DNA of 64,000 nucleotides from Promethearchaeia archaeon. Its GTDB lineage: Archaea > Asgardarchaeota > Lokiarchaeia > Sigyniarchaeales > SOKP01. Of the stretch, positions 16,707-64,000 are shown one piece after another. The DNA is taken from positions 45,637-109,636 of the forward strand of contig JAHQWL010000081.1 of assembly GCA_029856155.1 (NCBI GenBank). Reading direction: 5' to 3'. Below the pieces are notes generated by a model that did no database searches, was not told the DNA's origin, and worked only from the letters and a program-made list of their open reading frames with translations. A program made the translations under genes and the position numbers. The stretch's first letter is position 1. Every line of letters starts with the position of its first letter.

Positions 16707-19700
16707 CTAGTATTCTCTCATAATTTCTGTATAGAGATTCTCAATAAATTTGCTAAAATTGTCTTTATCATATTTGACATTAAGTAAGTGCCATAATATC
16801 TTTGGAATATGCTTTTGATCTTCATATACGGGAATCAGTTTTATCAAACCTTCTTTTCTCATTTGGAACGCTGCTTGCCATTCATCTTTTACAGCTTTAG
16901 ATTTCACAGAATTTTCGCTACAAAAGAGTAGAAAGGTATTACTTACTTCTAGTGTTTCTTCCATGAATTCTACGATGTTTGGTTTGCTATCTTTTTCCCA
17001 ATACGAGACTTGGTTGATGTTAGGATACTTTTTGAGCTCTTCACAATCTTTTCTATCTGAAAATGATCTCGATCAGCGGTAGAATAACTTATAAAGAGAT
17101 TATACTTTTTTTCTTCCTCTTTCTTTATTATAGGTGGAGGGATAACCGCTTTTTTTATTTCTCTTTCTTTAACGGGTGGAGCTACTTCTTCCTTTATAAC
17201 TGGTTTAGAAATTTCTACTTCTAATTCTTTACAATCTTCAACCTTTTCATTTGCTCTGTTAAAAATGTAGTAGAAATCATACATATCCGCGGTATCTTGA
17301 ATTTTTCCTAAATTTTTATAAGCTAATTTAATTTTCCTTTCCCTTATGAGATAATCGACAAAATCCAGCTTTTCTTCAAGTTTAGCTCTAACTTTTTCTT
17401 TTTTCTTCTCACTTATTTCTTTTTCCTTCTTTGTTGGAATTGATATTCTCTTTTTTATAATTATGGCTGCCCCCGTAACTCCAACAACTACTAAACCAAT
17501 TATCAAAACGATTATTAAAATATCAAAAGGAAATCCACTAGGTAGCCTTGGTAAAATATTATTTAAACCAATATTATTTCCAACACCCGTATCTACAATT
17601 GCTTGACCATTATTCAATAGAGTGTTCCAATCAATAGAATTATAGTTAGACTGATCCAGAAATATTCCTATTCCGTTGTTGTTTATTATATTATTTGTTA
17701 TATTATTATAATGACTGTTAGATAAATGAATACCATATAGCTCGTTAAAATTTATTGTCTCTTTATTATTAAGGATATCGATATTACTACAATCAATCAA
17801 TACAATTCCAGACCTCTCATTGTTATTAATTGAATTCTCTGTTATCAAAATGTTTTGACAAGAATCTAAAATTATTCCATTCGCGTTATTAAACGAACAA
17901 TTATTATAGATTAATTCACCATTTATCGTTGAGTCTAGTTTAATTCCCCCATCATAAAGATCGTCGCCAGAATTATAAAAAGTACAATTTTCAATCCTGA
18001 AATCTACATTCGAATTTCTAATTGTAAGACAACTAGTTGAATTCAAGCCATCAATTGTAATTAATCCAATTATATATGGATCATTTAAAGTACCAGAACC
18101 ATAAATCCATGCTAATTGGCTAATACATTCTACCCACGTAAAATCTCCAGTTCCACTATCATCAATAATAATTGGATCTGTGAAACCATTTTCAACATTC
18201 CAATTAAAGATATTATTTACACCACCACTTTCATAGATACTATATAAGTTTCCAATGAATACATTACCTATGACCTTAGTATTATTGCTGCTCCATAAAT
18301 ACAGTCCCGCAAAAGTGTTATAATTTGCTATATTACTTGCAACGATGGCATTATTGCAGTTCCATACAAATATTCCATTCCAACCATTATTATCTACGAT
18401 ATTTCCTACAACTTTAATATCTTGACCATCATATATGTCTATTCCATTGTCACCATTAAAGGTAACATTGTTGTTCATTATAGTATTGTTATTACTTGAA
18501 GATGATAAATAAATGCCTTTTTGGTCATTATTAAAAGCTGAGTTTTCTGAAATTGTATTATTGTTACTTAAACCTAAATACATCCCATCAGAATTTTCAT
18601 TTAAAATGTTTCCCGAAAGAATATTATTATGACTTACTTCTAAAAATATTCCAGACTCTTCATTATTGTTTACTATATTTCCATCAATCGTAACGTTTTG
18701 ACTTTGGTATAACCCAATTCCGACACCATTATTATTTGAACAGTTATTGGTTATCAATTGTCCATTAATAACATTTGTTAATTTAATACCTGCATTATAC
18801 ACTCCTGAACCGGAATTAGAAAGTGTGCAACCTACTATCTTAAAAAATACCGTAGAATCCCTAATTTCTATGCAGCTACTTGAATTTTGACCATCGATAA
18901 TTAAATTTTGAATTATAAACGGATCAGAGTAGCTGCCAGAACCTGTACACCAAATAAACAGATAAGCTGCTTCTACCCATATAAGATCGCCTCCTCCATT
19001 GTTATCTATAACAAATGGAGAAAGCATTCCATCAAAATAATTTAAAATAAAATTGTTATTTACACTTTCAAATTCACTAATGTGTTGAAATAAGTTCCCA
19101 ATGAATGAATTACTTATAACATCTGTATTATTGCTTCTATATAACCTTAATCCGAATAAATCGTTATTACTTAAAGTGTTTCCAATAATTGTATTATTAT
19201 TGCTTTCCCACAACCACATTCCATAATCGTTATGGTCTACCGTATTTCCTATTACTGTATTATTATGACTATGAGCAATAAATATTCCTTCATCATTATA
19301 GGAAAAATTATTATTTAAGATCCAATTGTGATTACTTGAAGATTCTAAATAAATCCCTCTTTGGCCAATATTATTAAAAGCTGAATTATCTGAAATGTTA
19401 TTGGCGGTACTTAATCCTAAATAAATCCCAGAATAATAATTCTCATTACAAACATTTCCCGAAAGACTGTTATTATGACTTGTTGCTAGAAATATGCCAT
19501 ACTCATCATTATTACCTGCAGTATTTCCTGAAATTGTAATATTTTGACTATCAGATAAACGCATTCCATTGCCGTTATTATTTGAAAAGTTATTGGATAT
19601 CAATTGTCCATTAATCACATTTATTAATACGATTCCTGCATTATCTAGCCCTGAAGAAGAATTAAACGTTATACAGCCTACAATTATAAAATACTCATCG

Positions 19701-22009
19701 GAGTTCTTAATCGTGATACAACTGCTTAAATTTAATCCATCTATAATTAAATTTTTTATAGTATAAGGATCCTTAAATGTTCCAGATCCAGAACACCACG
19801 CTAATTTATTTGATGCTTGATCCCATTTAAAATCCCCTCCCCCACTATTATCAATGGTAAATGGAGAACTTTCATTATTAATAACATTCCAATGAAATGT
19901 ATTATTAAAGCTATTTATTTCATTATACCATCCGTTTACATTATCATTCAAAATATTACCACATATAAAGCTGTTATTACTATCATGTATAGTTAATCCA
20001 AAATCATAGTTTTCTTTAATTAAATTTGCGATAATAAAATTATCTTCACAATTATATAAATAAAGCGCGCTTAAAGTGCTCTCTGTTATAGTATTTCTTG
20101 AAACCGTATTATTATAAGAGTCTGAGTATAACATAATTCCATAAGTGTTGTCTCTAACTAAATTTTCTAGAACTGTATGATTATTACCAAAAGATAAAAA
20201 AATCCCATACATCGAATTAGATTGTAACAAATTTCCTAAAATGGTACTATTTTGACACCAGGCCACAATAATTCCTCCTAAATTATTGTTATTTAAATTG
20301 TTACCTGAAATGGTGCTATCATCACTCCAACTTTGAATCCCACGTTCATCATTATAACTTATGTTATTTCCTAAGATTTTACTATTATCACTGTGAAAAA
20401 TATGTATACCATCGTGAACATTATGGTTTACGATGTTTCCTATAATAGTACTATTATCACCTTCCCAAATGTATATTCCATTTCCATTATTATTTGAACA
20501 ATTATTACCTATTAATGTACCGTTATTTGAATGGTCTAACTTAATTCCTGCATGATTTAAACCTGTGGCGGAATTAAAAACTGTACAATTTTCAATCTTA
20601 AAAAAAACATCAGAATTCTCAATTGTGATACAACTGCTTAAATTTAATCCATCTATAATTAAATTTTTTATAGTATAAGGATCATTAAGAGTTCCCGAAC
20701 CAGAACACCATGTTCGAGTTTTAGCCCAATTCCAGTTATTAGATGCACTATCATCAATGGCAATCTTACTTCCATTATGTCCATCATCCCATAAAGGGAA
20801 ATGATCTTGACCTCCTGCAATACCTGAAATATTATAAGGTGAATCTCCAATACCATCATCATTTTGATCTATTCCTGTATAATCATCCCAGAAATTTCCC
20901 ATATTTGTTTTATTCCACTTATTATTTGTACCAGTACCTCCATCAAAAGCGTTAATTCCATTTTTAATAAAAGAATTATTATAAAAAAGATTATGATTAC
21001 TATCTGTGAATGCGTCTTCAATATAGATACCACTATTATTATTTTCATGAATCTCATTATTAGTGAAATTATTATAATCACATTGATCGCTTAACCATAT
21101 TCCAATGTCATTTTTACTCAAATTATTTCGCGAAAGCACGCTATTATCAACATACATGAAATATATTCCTTCACTAGTACTATTATATATTATATTATCA
21201 GAGACTGTGTTAAAATTACTATGCTGTGAGAAAATACCCTGATCATTATAATATAATGTATTTCGGACAATAATATTACTATCACCGGAGAAGTAAATCC
21301 CACTATGACCATTATTATATATTTTATTGTCTGTAACATTATTATGGTTACCACCCGATAAATAAACTCCAATCCAACCATTATCAATAGTATTTTCAGA
21401 GATTATATTTTGGGTACTTATAACCTCAATAATTGCATTATGGCTATTATCAATAGTATTTATTGAGATGTTATTTTGATGACTGTATCTTAGAGCTATT
21501 CCTGAATCTCCATTATCTTTTAAAGTGTTTCCTGTGATTGTGATATTATTACAGGTTTCAATCCACATTCCAGAACGTCCGTTATTAGAACAATTATTGT
21601 TTTCTATTGTTCCATTGTTGACATTTTCTAAAAAGATTCCCCCATATAGATTATCATCCTTTGAATTAAAGAGAGTACAGTTACGAATGATAAAATATAC
21701 ATTAGAATTCCGAACTGTAAGACACCTAGCAGTCGTTTGTCCATCAATCGTTACATTTTCAATAATATATGGATCACTCCATGTACCTGAACCTGAGCAC
21801 CAAGGTTGACCTACTGCCCAAGTCCAATTATTACTAGGATTTAAATCATTAATAAGAATTGGAGTACCGGTGAGATCCCAATATCCTGCATTTTTTAAGC
21901 TAGTTTCATAATTATTGTTAGGTTGATCAAAAGTATCTAAAATGAAATTAGTTAAAGTTATAAATGTAATGATTCCCATTAAAGACATTATTTTTAAGTT
22001 CTTTTTCAT
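16707..22009 (-). CDS. Beta-helix (NosD/CASH-like) repeat surface receptor with single TM and C-terminal TIR domain; 1-nt frameshift in TIR near 17040
   Basis: ORF 16970-22009 reaches YNLFISYSTAD...IVK. The -1 frame continues ELKKYPNINQVSYWEKDSKPNIVEF into ORF 16707-16964 (FLLFCSENSVKSKAVKDEW...IPV). Confidence 0.85.
19713..20683. repeat. Exact 59-bp direct repeat (19713-19771 and 20625-20683)
   Basis: gtgatacaactgcttaaatttaatccatctataattaaattttttatagtataaggatc occurs in modules 2 and 3. Confidence 0.9.
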
Positions 22010-41969: not shown

Positions 41970-42383
41970 TTATGAACAATCACAATCTCCACAATCGCAA
42001 CCACTACAATCACACCCTCCACCACCACCACCACATGATCCTCCTCGGCGCTTTCCAGATCCACATGCTGTAGACCCTATGCAACAAATTATAATAGCAC
42101 CTATAACAAGAAATGAAATTCCAATGGGAGTTCCTCCAATCATCATCGGTAGTCCAAAATAAATTAATATAATTCCGACTACTACAACAAGAAGAACAGC
42201 AATAGCTGCACCCCCTTTAGTTTTTTTTGGTTTTGAAGGGGTATAAGGAGCTGCTTGATATGTTGGTTGTGTTGGTTGTGTTGGTTGAATATAAGGACTA
42301 GTGGAACTACCAATTGGTTTTGCACAAAAAGGACAAAAAACTGCCTCGTCAGGTATTTCTGAACCACAATTAGTACAATACAT
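41970..42383 (-). CDS. Zinc-ribbon membrane protein with Gly/Cys-rich tail
   Basis: CTNC...CPFC; (QPT)3 linker; TM hairpin; GGGGGGCDCSGCDCGDCDCS. Confidence 0.8.
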   Translation of the reverse strand: MYCTNCGSEIPDEAVFCPFCAKPIGSSTSPYIQPTQPTQPTYQAAPYTPSKPKKTKGGAAIAVLLVVVVGIILIYFGLPMMIGGTPIGISFLVIGAIIICCIGSTACGSGKRRGGSCGGGGGGCDCSGCDCGDCDCS

Positions 42384-59249: not shown

Positions 59250-61016
59250 TGTCAAACAACACTCACCCGACAAAAATAAATAGGCTCTGTGAGCTTAATA
59301 GAAAGATTTATCTTCGTTAAATCCTTATTTTATTTAATGCCAGCAAAACCTTCTGAAATCAAAAAAGCTACAATCCATACTTATTGGAATTCTAAAGAAG
59401 GATTGATCTGCCCCTTATGTTCTTCTCAACTACAATATGAATTTAATAATGGAGGTAGGAAAATTATTACTTTAAAGGGACCTGTATGGGTAATGACTAA
59501 TTATTATAGCTGCATTAATCCTAAGTGTGAAATGCACGAGGCATTTCCAGTAGCATATCATTCTGCCATGCAACGGAAGCGATTTTCCTTGGAAGTATGG
59601 GCAAAAGTGATACAACATCATTTCAAGCATCATCTTAATTATTCCACTATTGTTGAACTCATGTGGGACGATTGGGACGTGTCAATTTCGAGGAACACGG
59701 TGAGAAACATCTGCGAATTTTTTGAAATGGCAGGAAAGCAATACACGGACAAAAAAGTCCTAAAAGAGGTAGAATCAAGCGGGAGAATCGTTTTATCGCT
59801 TGATGGTGCCCAACCAGTTAAGAACGAGCCTTCTCTTTGGGTCTTTTCTGATCGTCTCACGGGAAACGTGCTCCTAGCAAGGAACTTAGAATCTGCTCCC
59901 GCATTCGCGTTATGTGCTATATTTCGAGAAATTGAAATGCTCTATAGCGTTCCCATCGTAGCCATCATTTCTGACAAGCAAAAAAACATTGTGAATGGTG
60001 TCAAGCAATTCAAACCAGATATCCCACATGCATATTGCCAGTACCACTTCCTTAACCACGTTGCCGAGCCCATTGCTTCGAAAGATTCGCATCTCAAGAA
60101 AATTCTTCGGAAATCTGTAAGACAATTCTCAATTGTCTATAATAATAAATATACCGATTCAAACGAGTTATACAAATTGTTTCATCCCATTAGCGAGGAG
60201 CTGAAATGTGCCATCTCCACGCGTGGTGTTCGATTTGACATGTTTCCAGGAATCGAAGCATATGCGAATTTAGAGTATGTTGTGTCACGATTGGAACAAT
60301 TCGGGGAAATGGAGTTCACTCCGAAAGTTTCTCGCACACTAAACGCTCTTCTTGCAGCATTAAAGAATTTACTTAGAGAGAATCGTCATTTACGAGAGGA
60401 AATAACCTCCTTGATACCTGATTTTCAGCAGATTCGTAAGATTTTGGCCAAAAGGGATAAAAAATCTTCTCAAATTGAGAAAGAAGTGAAAAAATGGGTG
60501 TACAAACTCCAAAGCCGCTTGAAAAGAAGAAAATTGGAATCTAATCCTCAGAACATCAAGTGGCAACAACCTTCTTTCAAGGTAAGTTGCGAGGAAATAT
60601 GGCAACAATGGATTCGGTTAGTAAAATCTTATAATGAAGGATTATACAGGGCTTATGATGTCGAGGAATTAGAGTTTACCAATAACGCCAAAGAACAGCT
60701 GTTTCACCGCAGTAAGCACCATTTTAAAGCCCTATTGGGCCGTGAAAACGTTGCAAGAGCGTTTCTGAACCACGGAGGACTGCATGTCCAGTTATTAGAT
60801 ATCGATTTTACGAAAAAAAAAGTTACTAGCGTGCTGTTAGCATGTGAAACCCCACTTATTGAAGCCCACAGGAAAGAATTTAACGCACAATACGCAACAA
60901 TAAAACGAACGTGGAGAATTAGAGAAAAAGACACGGGAAACTTTACCCAATTCAAAATTAATTTGACTCAACTAGGGGGAACCTAATCTATTTTGTCGAG
61001 TGAGTGGGCTTTGACA
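59250..61016 (+). mobile_element. Insertion sequence (~1.77 kb) with imperfect ~26-bp terminal inverted repeats
   Basis: Left end tgtcaaacaacactcacccgacaaaa; right end (reverse complement) tgtcaaagcccactcactcgacaaaa; visibly higher GC than host DNA. Confidence 0.9.
59337..60986 (+). CDS. DDE transposase (IS256/ISL3/MULE-like signatures)
   Basis: Zinc ribbon CPLC..C..C, HTH, SLDG, ISD, CQYH (CxxH) and TNNAKE. Probable ATG is 59337; the ORF is open from 59289. Confidence 0.88.
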   Translation: MPAKPSEIKKATIHTYWNSKEGLICPLCSSQLQYEFNNGGRKIITLKGPVWVMTNYYSCINPKCEMHEAFPVAYHSAMQRKRFSLEVWAKVIQHHFKHHLNYSTIVELMWDDWDVSISRNTVRNICEFFEMAGKQYTDKKVLKEVESSGRIVLSLDGAQPVKNEPSLWVFSDRLTGNVLLARNLESAPAFALCAIFREIEMLYSVPIVAIISDKQKNIVNGVKQFKPDIPHAYCQYHFLNHVAEPIASKDSHLKKILRKSVRQFSIVYNNKYTDSNELYKLFHPISEELKCAISTRGVRFDMFPGIEAYANLEYVVSRLEQFGEMEFTPKVSRTLNALLAALKNLLRENRHLREEITSLIPDFQQIRKILAKRDKKSSQIEKEVKKWVYKLQSRLKRRKLESNPQNIKWQQPSFKVSCEEIWQQWIRLVKSYNEGLYRAYDVEELEFTNNAKEQLFHRSKHHFKALLGRENVARAFLNHGGLHVQLLDIDFTKKKVTSVLLACETPLIEAHRKEFNAQYATIKRTWRIREKDTGNFTQFKINLTQLGGT

Positions 61017-61042: not shown

Positions 61043-62458
61043 TTAAAATTTGGTTTCATCGATAATGGGCATTTCTTCAGAATCTAAATTTCTTTGGATC
61101 TCATTAATAGGTAATTCAAATTCTTTTAAATTTCCAGCCATAAACTCCTTATAAGCTAATAGATCAAAAAATCCATGACCACTAAAATTGAACAAGATTA
61201 CCTTTTTCTCATTGTTTTCTTTAGCTTTCAATGCCTGATTAATCGTTTCTTGTATGGCATGCGCAGTTTCTGGAGCAGGAAGTATACCTTCAGCTCTAGC
61301 GAACTGAATACCGGCGTTAATTACTTCAGTTTGATGATGCATAACTGTATTGAGAAATTTGTTTTTGTATAGAATTGAAATAATAGGAGCCATTCCATGA
61401 TATCTTAATCCTCCCGCATGAATTGGGCTTGGCACGAAAGTATGCCCTAGAGTATACATCTTCACTATCGGCCCCTTCATCGAAGAATCTCCAAAATCCC
61501 ATCTATACTCTCCTTTACAAACACTAGGGCATGCTCGAGGTTCTACACCAATAAATTCCATATCTGGAGTTGTTCCGTTAAGTTTATCTTTCATAAACGG
61601 AATCATCAAACCTCCAAAATTAGAACCACCTCCCATGCACCCGATAATTATATCTGGTTTTTTAATACCCACTTTCGCTAGTTGTATTTTAGCTTCTTGT
61701 CCTATAATTGTTTGATGTAAAAGCACAAAATTAACTACACTTCCAAGAGAATATCGTGCTTTATCACTTCTCATACTATGTTCTAATGCTTCAGAAATCG
61801 CGATTCCTAGACTACCTGGGTGTTCGGGATCTTTTTGTAAAAATTTATTTCCTGATTCAGTAAGATTTGAAGGACTAGCATATACTTCAGCATTAAAAGC
61901 TCTCATTAAAATAGTTCTGCCTGGTTTTTGGATGAAACTTGCTCTTACCATGTATACGATGCATTTAAGTCTATATAAATTGCAACCATATGCCAAAGCT
62001 GATCCCCACTGTCCAGCACCTGTTTCCGTAACCAATTCTTCAGTACCTTCTTTTTTCGCATAGTATGCTTGGGTTATGGCAGTATTAGGTTTATGTGACC
62101 CCGTTGGAGAACAAGACTCATTTTTATAAAATATTTTAATTCTATCTCCTTCTATACCTAAGTCTCTCTCTAAGCCTAAAGCGCGATGTAGTGGACTTGG
62201 TCGATAGGTACGGGCAAAAATTTCCCTTAATTCCTTAGGGATGGGAATACTAGGTTCTAAAGAGAACTCTTGCATTACACATTCTTTTGGAAATATAGCA
62301 AATGCCATTTCAGGAGGAATTGGTTTCCCATCCATCGGATTAATTAAGGGCGTCATAGAAGAGGGTAAATCTGGTAAAATATTTATCCAATTCTTTGGGA
62401 TTTCATTTGGTTGTAATAATACTCTTCCATTAAAATTATCTACCATTCTAATTACCAT
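61043..62458 (-). CDS. trpB2: Tryptophan synthase beta chain 2 (TrpB2)
   Basis: GSHKPNT PLP-Lys, TETGAGQWG, GGGSN, HAGGLRYHG and SGHG. The start may be the ATG at 62446. Confidence 0.95.
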   Translation of the reverse strand: MVIRMVDNFNGRVLLQPNEIPKNWINILPDLPSSMTPLINPMDGKPIPPEMAFAIFPKECVMQEFSLEPSIPIPKELREIFARTYRPSPLHRALGLERDLGIEGDRIKIFYKNESCSPTGSHKPNTAITQAYYAKKEGTEELVTETGAGQWGSALAYGCNLYRLKCIVYMVRASFIQKPGRTILMRAFNAEVYASPSNLTESGNKFLQKDPEHPGSLGIAISEALEHSMRSDKARYSLGSVVNFVLLHQTIIGQEAKIQLAKVGIKKPDIIIGCMGGGSNFGGLMIPFMKDKLNGTTPDMEFIGVEPRACPSVCKGEYRWDFGDSSMKGPIVKMYTLGHTFVPSPIHAGGLRYHGMAPIISILYKNKFLNTVMHHQTEVINAGIQFARAEGILPAPETAHAIQETINQALKAKENNEKKVILFNFSGHGFFDLLAYKEFMAGNLKEFELPINEIQRNLDSEEMPIIDETKF

Positions 62459-62560
62459 TGATATTCATTTTTTCACACCTTATGATGTGTGTCATCAAAT
62501 TATTGGAAATCAATATATTTAATGCGCATTTAGAAAGAGATTTTAATATTTTTCAGAATA

Positions 62561-62656
62561 TTAAAATGAAAAAATAAAATTACATAGAATCCACTGCATT
62601 TGGCTTTATTGCCAACGCCAGGGCCACTGCCAACCAAAATTTCGCACAGTTGCCAT
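62561..62656 (-). promoter_or_regulatory. Candidate attenuator: leader ORF, hairpin and U-tract
   Basis: GCGUUGGC-AAUAAA-GCCAA(A)UGC hairpin followed by AUUUUAUUUUUUCAUUUU. Confidence 0.55.
62606..62656 (-). CDS. Trp-rich leader peptide (TrpL-like) MATVRNFGWQWPWRWQ
   Basis: ATG GCA ACT GTG CGA AAT TTT GGT TGG CAG TGG CCC TGG CGT TGG CAA TAA on the same strand, about 150 nt upstream of trpB2. Confidence 0.85.
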   Translation of the reverse strand: MATVRNFGWQWPWRWQ

Positions 62657-62698
62657 AATTATAAAAAAAGACTTCAAATTTTTTTATGTAATTTTTAA

Positions 62699-62716
62699 TT
62701 ATTGATATATCAATAA
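62699..62716. promoter_or_regulatory. Perfect 18-bp palindrome, candidate operator
   Basis: TTATTGATATATCAATAA, 43-60 nt upstream of the leader ATG. Confidence 0.4.
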
Positions 62717-62768
62717 AAAGTTAATGGTATTTCATAATAGTATTCTGGAAATCTAGATGTTTAATCAA

Positions 62769-63020
62769 TTAAAATAGATTAATGTACTTATTTTCAATAC
62801 TATCCAGAGCTTCATTCAATAAATTGATTAATATAATATTATCATATACGTAGGTATTTTCTAAAACGTAATCTAAGATATCATTTGCGAGTTTCCTATC
62901 TTCTTTAGAATAATTCTGCATTTTTGATTTAAATAAAATCTCAAATTCTTCTTTTATCCAATCCAATTCTTTTTCTAAAAATTCTTCTATAATCTCATGA
63001 TACCTTATACTAACTTTCAT
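62769..63020 (-). CDS. Hypothetical acidic protein
   Basis: 83-aa ORF with ATG start. Confidence 0.65.
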   Translation of the reverse strand: MKVSIRYHEIIEEFLEKELDWIKEEFEILFKSKMQNYSKEDRKLANDILDYVLENTYVYDNIILINLLNEALDSIENKYINLF

Positions 63021-63160
63021 TAAAATACATCAACACTTTAAAATTAATATAAACTTAATACTTCTTTAAGTCAAATAAATTGAAACGGTTATAAATAATT
63101 TTCATAGACCATTCATTGAAAATATGTTTTATTCCATTAAAATTAATTTATAAGATAGAA

Positions 63161-64000
63161 TTACACTTTATGGTAAAGATATCTGTCATAGGTTACATAT
63201 TCCACTCTTCCCGTCTTAGAATTTTGATGAAATTTAACTTTTTGAAGATTTGAGGGAATTGTTGAAAATAATCTGAAAGTTAAATCATCGAAATTTTCAA
63301 TAATAAGGGGGAAATTAAAGACTCCATCATCCGATTCAACTTTAATATGAATGGACATAGCTTTAAAAGATACTTCTAATTTATACAAACCTAGGGATGA
63401 TTTATAACTGCCAGCAATTTTATCATAAATTTCAATTATTTTTAGTTTTTCATTAATTTTTTCAGGATCTTTTCCAACCATCAAAGTTAAAGCAGAAATT
63501 CCAACTATACCGCAAATTCCACTGTCATCATTTTCAGCAACGCTCACAGCAATATTTAACTCTGGGATTAATCCAAAAAAGGAAGTACTTACACCCAACC
63601 CTCCTCCATGATGAATTAGGGTGTTATTCAGAAAATCTTCCTCCCGAACCCAACCTAGACAGTATTTAGGAGCTTTCCCATAACCATATGGAGATTTAAT
63701 TCTAGGAGTCCAAAGCAATTCTATAGACTCTGATTCAATAATTCGCTTGTTCTTAAAAACTCCTTTTTGTAATAAACATTCAGCATAATTTAACATTTCA
63801 TGCATAGATGTATATAAACCACCAGGAGCTTGAAGATACTCTGAAAACGGTAACTTTGGTTTATCAAATTGCAATTTTTCCTCTGTTCCTTTATGAATAT
63901 ATCCTGTAATATAATCCTTCAATGGATCCTTTTCAAGTTGTTCTCGGTTGACCGTAGCACGTGTCATTTCTAAGGGTTTCAATAGTTCTTCACTTAAAAC
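63161..64000 (-). CDS. Serine hydrolase (beta-lactamase/AmpC-like), 5' end outside the window
   Basis: LKPLEM, APGGLYTS, YCLGW and HGGG; the frame stays open to the window edge. Confidence 0.88.
   Translation of the reverse strand, partial: VLSEELLKPLEMTRATVNREQLEKDPLKDYITGYIHKGTEEKLQFDKPKLPFSEYLQAPGGLYTSMHEMLNYAECLLQKGVFKNKRIIESESIELLWTPRIKSPYGYGKAPKYCLGWVREEDFLNNTLIHHGGGLGVSTSFFGLIPELNIAVSVAENDDSGICGIVGISALTLMVGKDPEKINEKLKIIEIYDKIAGSYKSSLGLYKLEVSFKAMSIHIKVESDDGVFNFPLIIENFDDLTFRLFSTIPSNLQKVKFHQNSKTGRVEYVTYDRYLYHKV

Follow-up and report, generated by a model that had tools for sequence, protein, structure and literature searches.

A tryptophan-codon leader upstream of trpB2 in an Asgard archaeon, a probable ribosome-sensed attenuator

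Among bacteria, leader-peptide attenuation is textbook knowledge; it needs ribosomes closely trailing RNA polymerase. The E. coli trp leader ends W-W-R-T-S-stop. A separate antiterminator is not universal in the leader-peptide attenuator class, as attenuators of the pyrBI type illustrate. The TnaC peptide carries as its hallmarks Trp12, Asp16 and Pro24, the last immediately before the stop. To our knowledge, regulation of archaeal trp genes is so far known to work through repressors, and TrpY of Methanothermobacter is a DNA-binding repressor of trp genes that acts at initiation. Our literature searches found no description of a leader-peptide attenuator in archaea, and a co-mention of "leader peptide" and "Asgard" proved to concern bacteriocin precursors. 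Termination by archaeal polymerases occurs at oligo(dT) tracts or via FttA, a factor with a preference for U-rich RNA, and one archaeon has been observed to translate co-transcriptionally (reviewed in PMC13681488).

We analysed a stretch of 64,000 nucleotides (the window) from a genome whose closest public records are metagenome-assembled genomes (MAGs) labelled Promethearchaeota, in agreement with the Asgard-like host proposed in an initial annotation of this DNA. Upstream of trpB2 the window carries several features of the attenuator class, namely a Trp-codon-rich short ORF, co-oriented and 5' of trp genes, and a hairpin whose formation depends on ribosome position. The resemblance to trpL (RF00513) extends to the downstream U-tract, to a stop codon only a few codons past the Trp codons (here W-R-W-Q-stop), and to a hairpin resembling the 1:2 hairpin, in which Trp codons supply the 5' arm and the stop lies between the two arms. 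Unlike trpL, the element has an archaeal host, no Rfam match and no 2:3 antiterminator that we could find; in the window its hairpin and the U-tract are set apart, about 90 nt of conserved, structured spacer come after them, and it is the archaeal oligo-U or FttA machinery that would carry out termination. A cmscan search of positions 61800–63400 at E up to 10 returned no Rfam match, neither to RF00513 Trp_leader or RF01692 Bacteroid-trp nor to the T-box. The Asgard element differs further from Bacteroid-trp in standing also before trpD and trpE and in being shared across Asgard families, which argues against a recent import of a single cassette from bacteria.

The best-fitting mechanical analogy is E. 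coli pyrBI, in which one ribosome-sensitive hairpin has its 5' arm occluded by a stalled or close-following ribosome and no antiterminator takes part. The same analogy of a ribosome blocking a hairpin applies to the poly-Cys leaderless sORFs of mycobacteria (bioRxiv 10.1101/834739); signal and organisms differ from ours in both cases. What the locus would share with TrpY is tryptophan-responsive control of archaeal trp genes, but the conserved unit here is a candidate translated leader with RNA structure. The leader looks as though it works like a bacterial trp leader, yet it lies outside RF00513 and RF01692 and is without a demonstrable antiterminator.

The leader frame and its association with tryptophan genes

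The two genes of the locus and the ribosome-binding region are as follows.
62606–62656, minus strand: leader ORF MATVRNFGWQWPWRWQ, 16 codons plus stop, read from the sequence.
61043–62446, minus strand: trpB2, encoding a stand-alone TrpB-like PLP enzyme of 467 aa from the conserved ATG, assigned by NF009057/TIGR01415 and orthologue alignment.
62454–62456, minus strand: Shine-Dalgarno-like GGU, 7 nt 5' of the trpB2 start, invariant or nearly so in the same-genus alignment.

The 16-codon minus-strand ORF with four TGG codons that the initial annotation had claimed at 62656–62606 is present. Its codons are ATG GCA ACT GTG CGA AAT TTT GGT TGG CAG TGG CCC TGG CGT TGG CAA TAA, encoding M-A-T-V-R-N-F-G-W-Q-W-P-W-R-W-Q-stop, with Trp at codons 9, 11, 13 and 15 (62632-30, 62626-24, 62620-18 and 62614-12), that is, four Trp in 16 codons. 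The GC-rich island described for it in AT-rich DNA was recovered as well, GC being 0.47–0.48 across the ORF against 0.10–0.20 in the flanks. No Shine-Dalgarno sequence precedes the leader ATG.

Among about 45,500 ATG-started frames of 8–45 codons in the 4.1-Mb genome, 33 contained at least four Trp codons, and nearly all of these were alternative frames of coding DNA. The roughly 575 kb outside long ORFs held two sORFs with at least four Trp codons, at least two of them close together, and only the leader ORF sits close (147 nt) 5' of a co-oriented gene. A sequence model of the leader (R1) gave a single strong match in the genome (E = 3e-24; runner-up 0.08); the model uses sequence only because RNAalifold gave no base pair on the 57-sequence alignment, in which hairpin types are out of register. 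The leader ORF is not a chance occurrence. A frame richer in Trp, MWIWK...WWWWWRV (42010–42066), was considered as a leader and rejected because it is an alternative frame inside the coding ORF 41970–42383 (minus strand, 137 aa). The product of that ORF begins, at its N terminus, like a zinc ribbon (CxxC...CPFC), further contains a linker rich in Pro/Thr/Gln as well as hydrophobic segments, and has a tail rich in Cys/Gly/Asp (…CGGGGGGCDCSGCDCGDCDCS); the alternative frame of the ORF is the Trp-richest sORF in the genome.

The downstream gene is of the TrpB2 type by full-length match (NF009057, 624 bits, cut-off 366; TIGR01415, 578 bits, cut-off 519). An ATG at 62458 was rejected as its start, since orthologue alignment places the start at the conserved ATG 62446. 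The leader therefore ends 159 nt before trpB2, on the same strand. The gene is monocistronic, the next ORF (59289–60986) being convergent. Three neighbouring ORFs, at 59289–60986 (plus strand, 565 aa), 62769–63020 (minus strand, 83 aa) and 63161–63982 (minus strand, 273 aa), gave no NCBIfam match at E ≤0.001.

The genome is 97% complete, and TrpB2 was the sole Trp-forming enzyme found: neither TrpA nor the chorismate-binding domain of TrpE nor TrpB1 above its cut-off was matched, and for IGPS there was only a marginal fragment. TrpB2 has a high affinity for indole. Since the searches turned up no further gene of the Trp pathway, trpB2 probably serves indole salvage, making Trp from scavenged indole and being induced by Trp shortage. 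Induction on Trp starvation makes sense for the only Trp-forming enzyme found. ARAGORN reported 28 tRNA genes and no tRNA-Trp in the same genome (G000, scored 97% complete); the low count and the missing tRNA-Trp are probably explained by unusual introns or unassembled genes.

The initial annotation had proposed a search for W-rich sORFs before trpB2 orthologues and other trp genes, and relatives carry them before trpB2, trpD and trpE. All 16 same-genus trpB2 loci have a frame of 13–18 codons ending ...W-Q-W-P-W-x-W-Q/R about 150 nt 5' of trpB2, and loci in three other families of the order have frames ending W-x-W plus 1–4 codons. A further 80 loci from named Promethearchaeota MAGs (TrpB2 identity 69–99%) yielded a leader in 72 of 79 that were readable; seven were without one and one locus was unreadable. 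The leader model matched 107 of 151 sampled genomes of the order and 105 of 131 of the family. Within the genus, presence of the leader tracks the gene: it occurs in 16/16 genomes with TrpB2 and is missing in 7/8 without, the eighth having only a 21-bit match to the model. Sampling across the phylum added at least five further families in which W-rich frames end shortly before trpB2, and in a family of 1.4-Mb genomes the leader keeps a ...GCCAC-UGCAAUGG... motif after the stop.

The association is exclusively with trp genes and extends beyond trpB2. W-rich sORFs lie 130–430 nt upstream of trpD in genomes G039, G026, G035, G029, G018, G119, G024, G098 and G125, and at the same range of distances upstream of trpE in G133; three of these genomes belong to the same genus, and the genes 3' of these leaders were all confirmed by Pfam. 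The trpD and trpE leaders are second copies or analogous W-rich frames. By this distribution the element is evidently old and follows tryptophan genes, not one particular gene. One contig (G058:C50) has two trpB2 copies, 67336–68733 (minus strand) and 83547–84941 (plus strand), 76% and 79% identical to the TrpB2 of the window, each with its own leader match.

Across these loci the ATG, the frame joining it to the UGG codons, and a stop 1–4 codons past the last Trp are all kept, codons 5–8 vary freely, and indels come in multiples of three. A start, W-x-W within an open frame and a stop are still present in families too distant to align. The pattern is that of a coding frame, one that is presumably translated. 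A decayed copy was seen at L118 (G078:C96:3600-8000, around 340–450), where one Trp-position codon is TAG and the H4 motif and downstream module described below are lost; the 344-aa ORF 3' of it has no Pfam match and is no recognisable trp gene.

The nucleotides are constrained beyond their coding value. UGGCAGUGGC is invariant, including a synonymous site, 90% or more of the rows have CAG although the genome is AT-rich, and one clade keeps the nucleotides in a shifted frame that leaves only two or three Trp codons.
L083, L084, L086, L087, L090 and L097, upstream of trpB2: frame-shifted clade in which the UGGC-rich nucleotides are kept.
From the invariant UGGCAGUGGC and this clade it follows that RNA-level constraints act too. 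In the frame-shifted clade the frame crosses a GCGUU/AACGC hairpin that is directly followed by UUUUU, and a helix, AUGGUU / AACCAU, brackets the whole ORF.

RNA structure of the leader and spacer

The leader overlaps a hairpin that is followed, at some distance, by two U-rich tracts.
62591–62623, minus strand: hairpin H1, with 5' arm 62623–62611, loop 62610–62605 and 3' arm 62604–62591, from folds and covariation.
62569–62579, minus strand: U-tract T1, UUUUAUUUUUU, 11 nt past H1, a candidate site of oligo-U termination or pausing.
62532–62540, minus strand: pyrimidine/U-rich tract T2, UCUCUUUCU (CUCUUUUU in most relatives), directly after hairpin H2, from alignments.

H1 pairs GCGUUGGC with GCCAA(A)UGC, and its 5' arm starts with Pro12, takes in Trp13 and Trp15 and ends on the first base of Gln16. 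As first described, the stop codon (UAA, 62608-06) lies inside the loop. H1 is part of the centroid fold, and its 5-bp core UUGGC/GCCAA also appears in the minimum-energy fold. Among 17 same-genus sequences, 88% of its cells are paired and three pairs show double changes. By reading of the folds, 57 of 57 aligned leaders have a hairpin that begins at the last Trp codons and ends shortly after the stop. A strict scripted test, which requires the stop in a loop closed by at least four pairs and so misses leaders with the stop inside the 3' arm, found it in 38/57 against 29% of shuffles. By our count the arms come in ten or more distinct sequences, in every case around the stop codon; the global 73-sequence alignment was too noisy for a covariation scan of such variable hairpins. 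Leaders of other families have a long hairpin that starts at most 12 nt past the last Trp codon, with a U-tract directly after it, and some clades of relatives likewise have U-runs directly after the hairpin. One such leader, L027, with a canonical hairpin and U-tract, comes from a complete single-contig genome of 4.4 Mb in the sister family (G032).

The U-tract reported after the hairpin was located as TTTTATTTTTT at 62579–62569 (T1). A run of at least five T within 48 nt after the stop occurs in 41/57 leaders (72%) against 22% of random genome windows, an enrichment that is only supportive because the leader sequences are related. T-runs of at least six are found in 24–31% of gene flanks in this 30% GC genome. 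A terminator scan called none in the window, because H1 lies 11 nt from T1 and H2 is without a G-C pair. T2 is a possible second termination site.

In folds of nine relatives, masking the site of a ribosome abolished H1 and changed only H1. The initial annotation had also proposed that the GCCAA(A) arm of H1 pairs alternatively with UUUGGU or UUGGC earlier in the leader. This part was not supported, as the same ribosome-masked folds revealed no conserved antiterminator and no alternative partner for the freed 3' arm. RNAalifold on the 17-sequence alignment preferred a pairing of Trp9–Pro12 with Trp15-stop-GCC, and this pairing never varies. A long-range helix between T1 and an A-tract before the ribosome-binding site, common in minimum-energy folds, was dropped because it did no better than slid controls or shuffles.

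Between H1 and trpB2 the spacer contains further helices.
62541–62566, minus strand: hairpin H2, all A-U, 62566–62557 with 62550–62541, with five compensatory pairs among the 17 same-genus sequences.
62493–62524, minus strand: H3 (62524–62520 with 62497–62493) enclosing H4 (62515–62511 with 62505–62501), from covariation.
62474–62489, minus strand: hairpin H5 (CACAUC / GGUGUG), with a C-G to U-A change in 9 versus 7 sequences.

Over the leader RNA of the 17 same-genus sequences, 89% of cells were paired against 31–43% when partners were slid, and 11 pairs showed double changes against 5.1 in shuffles, with 0 of 500 shuffles reaching 11. Three helices 3' of H1 covary. In H3, scored over 68 sequences, the first pair is AU in 42, GU in 7 and GC in 5, and the second UA in 48, UG in 10 and CG in 5; in H5, all five pairs show double changes in the same comparison. 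The trpD leaders of the genus carry the H3/H4 module with a different, still complementary H3. The covarying stems that the initial annotation had called for are thus borne out by the 11 double-change pairs and by H3, and by this covariation the spacer between leader and trpB2 evidently works as RNA. The H3/H4 block, which contains the near-invariant UUGAUUUCCAAU and the box TTAAATAT, is conserved in sequence far beyond H2 or H5.

Two observations concern the spacer in relatives. Loci L056:1413-1497 and L060:1413-1497, of close trpB2 orthologues at 79–80% identity, are without leader ORF, H1 and H2 and retain the H3/H4/H5 block at its usual position, so that they resemble natural deletion variants. 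In family f2 (L025, L026, L027 and L029), a conserved …AGUGGAC followed by UUUGAG or AAAAGG lies between the leader terminator and trpB2, in a long spacer, in the place of H3/H4 of the window's family.

The only strongly conserved promoter-like element is also the best-conserved one upstream of the leader ATG.
62712–62719, minus strand: TATA-like box TTTTTATT, about 60 nt 5' of the leader ATG, at least 95% conserved in 73 distinct sequences.
TTTTTATT is the probable promoter of the leader transcript, which would start near 62690, and the trpD leaders have ATATAAAT-type boxes at a similar distance. A consensus drawn from tRNA upstream regions was unreadable, these regions being too AT-rich, and a sigma-70 promoter scan gave 7 matches against 4.8 expected, about chance for a model that is not applicable to archaea. 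The second box noted initially, TTAAATAT at 62522–62515, exists, and a trpB2 transcript start there, downstream of the leader, had been named as evidence against attenuation. It lies inside the covarying helix H3, which favours the upstream start: since H3 behaves as an RNA helix, a functional transcript must begin upstream of 62524. An additional internal start may be used besides the upstream one.

Proposed mechanism and competing explanations

The leader is, in our judgement, probably a ribosome-sensed tryptophan leader (attenuator) for trpB2. The initial reading of the locus as an attenuator is supported, and the computational refutation tests named with it all came out in its favour. Because the masked folds contain no antiterminator, the simplest model is a single ribosome-sensitive hairpin that promotes termination at one or more U-tracts. 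A transcript from the promoter about 60 nt 5' of the leader ATG would comprise the 16-codon ORF, the structured spacer of about 160 nt and trpB2. With charged tRNA-Trp plentiful, a translating ribosome would clear the four UGG codons and be released at UAA, and H1 would form. RNA polymerase would then stop at T1 (62579–62569), perhaps also at H2/T2, by intrinsic oligo-U termination or by termination dependent on FttA/aCPSF1.

The 3' edge of a ribosome lies about 12 nt beyond the A-site codon, as known from toeprinting and profiling. When Trp is scarce, a ribosome would wait with UGG codon 11, 13 or 15 in its A site, and its mRNA channel, reaching about 12 nt past that codon, would cover the 5' arm of H1 and block the hairpin. 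The nascent RNA would then stay shielded and the polymerase would read on into trpB2, so that starvation would presumably raise expression. Termination at oligo-U is likely, and it is the weak point of the model for this window. Against the attenuator model stands the observation that about 90 nt of highly conserved RNA (H3/H4/H5) between the U-tracts and trpB2 plays no part in it.

That conserved RNA bears most directly on the possibility that the same ribosome sensor has a post-transcriptional output, with stalling protecting the RNA from 5'-3' or endonucleolytic decay or remodelling H3–H5 for better trpB2 translation. The window has no canonical terminator, T-runs are common in the genome, a large conserved structured spacer (H2–H5) separates leader and start codon, and H5 is close to the ribosome-binding region. 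However, no predicted fold sequesters the GGU or AUG of trpB2, and masking the ribosome site leaves H2–H5 unaltered. The hairpin with an immediate U-tract in other families looks like a terminator, and the enrichment of T-runs after the stop (72% of leaders, 22% of background windows) points the same way. We regard a post-transcriptional output as unlikely.

The sequence conservation of H3/H4, far above that of H2 and H5, and the TATA-like, AT-rich stretch within it could instead reflect two units, in which the sORF transcript ends at T1/T2 and trpB2 is transcribed from its own promoter (TTAAATAT, 62522-15), with TTGATTTCCAAT as the operator of a Trp-responsive, TrpY-like factor. L056 and L060, which retain the H3/H4 block without a leader, agree with such an arrangement, as does the repressor-based control so far known for archaeal trp genes. 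But H3 shows G-U intermediates and G-C double changes, and its trpD version is different yet complementary, which is the behaviour of an RNA helix and not of a protein-binding DNA site, and the TATA-like letters themselves vary. A regulon search detected no further intergenic copy of the H4 motif in the genome, only sites in coding DNA, and hence no regulon is indicated. A second exact match to the motif, near 19604, was rejected as a regulon site, as it falls inside a 1679-aa ORF (16970–22009). Two separate units would also leave the Trp-codon ORF before three different trp genes unexplained, and we consider them very unlikely.

An RNA-only element, riboswitch-like or tRNA-sensing, in which the frame is incidental and the UGGC repeats serve for pairing or for ligand or tRNA contacts, would account for the invariance of UGGCAGUGGC down to a synonymous site, for the nucleotides kept in the frame-shifted clade, and for the conserved multi-helix domain downstream; each of the four UGGC units is able to pair with the GCCA arm. 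It sits poorly, however, with the preservation, over wide divergence and even in families that cannot be aligned, of a start codon whose frame stays open as far as the UGG codons and of a close stop, and the lack of any Rfam match at E up to 10, T-box included, also speaks against it. We give it a slimmer chance still than two units. A TnaC-like arrest peptide, a W-rich nascent chain that would respond to free tryptophan by halting its ribosome at the stop codon, would fit the stop close behind a Trp/Pro-rich C-terminus and the common WPW, but its probability is close to negligible, as the TnaC hallmarks are missing, the last residue is variable (Q, R, H, L, A, S or F), the regulated genes are biosynthetic so that induction by excess Trp would be senseless, and a ribosome halted on the stop codon would have the same opening effect on H1 as starvation.

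Coupling and tryptophan supply in Asgard archaea

Read as a ribosome-sensed attenuator, the Asgard Trp-codon leader before trpB2, trpD and trpE would offer a concrete, mutable test case for the coupling of transcription with translation in archaea, and it bears on how oligo-U or FttA termination is modulated. More speculatively, and with more doubt than confidence, we suggest that the leader is an ancient Asgard-wide device in which a Trp-starved ribosome shields the nascent RNA and blocks oligo-U or FttA (CPSF73-like) termination, and in which the H3/H4 module UUGAUUUCCAAU would be a second input that binds a protein or RNA. If true, this would give archaea their first demonstrated case of transcription-translation coupling put to regulatory use, and in the lineage nearest eukaryotes. 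For annotation, the gain is a previously unannotated small gene and RNA element for more than 100 genomes. The leader also bears on indole salvage in the mostly uncultured Asgard archaea, many of which are apparently unable to make Trp from chorismate.
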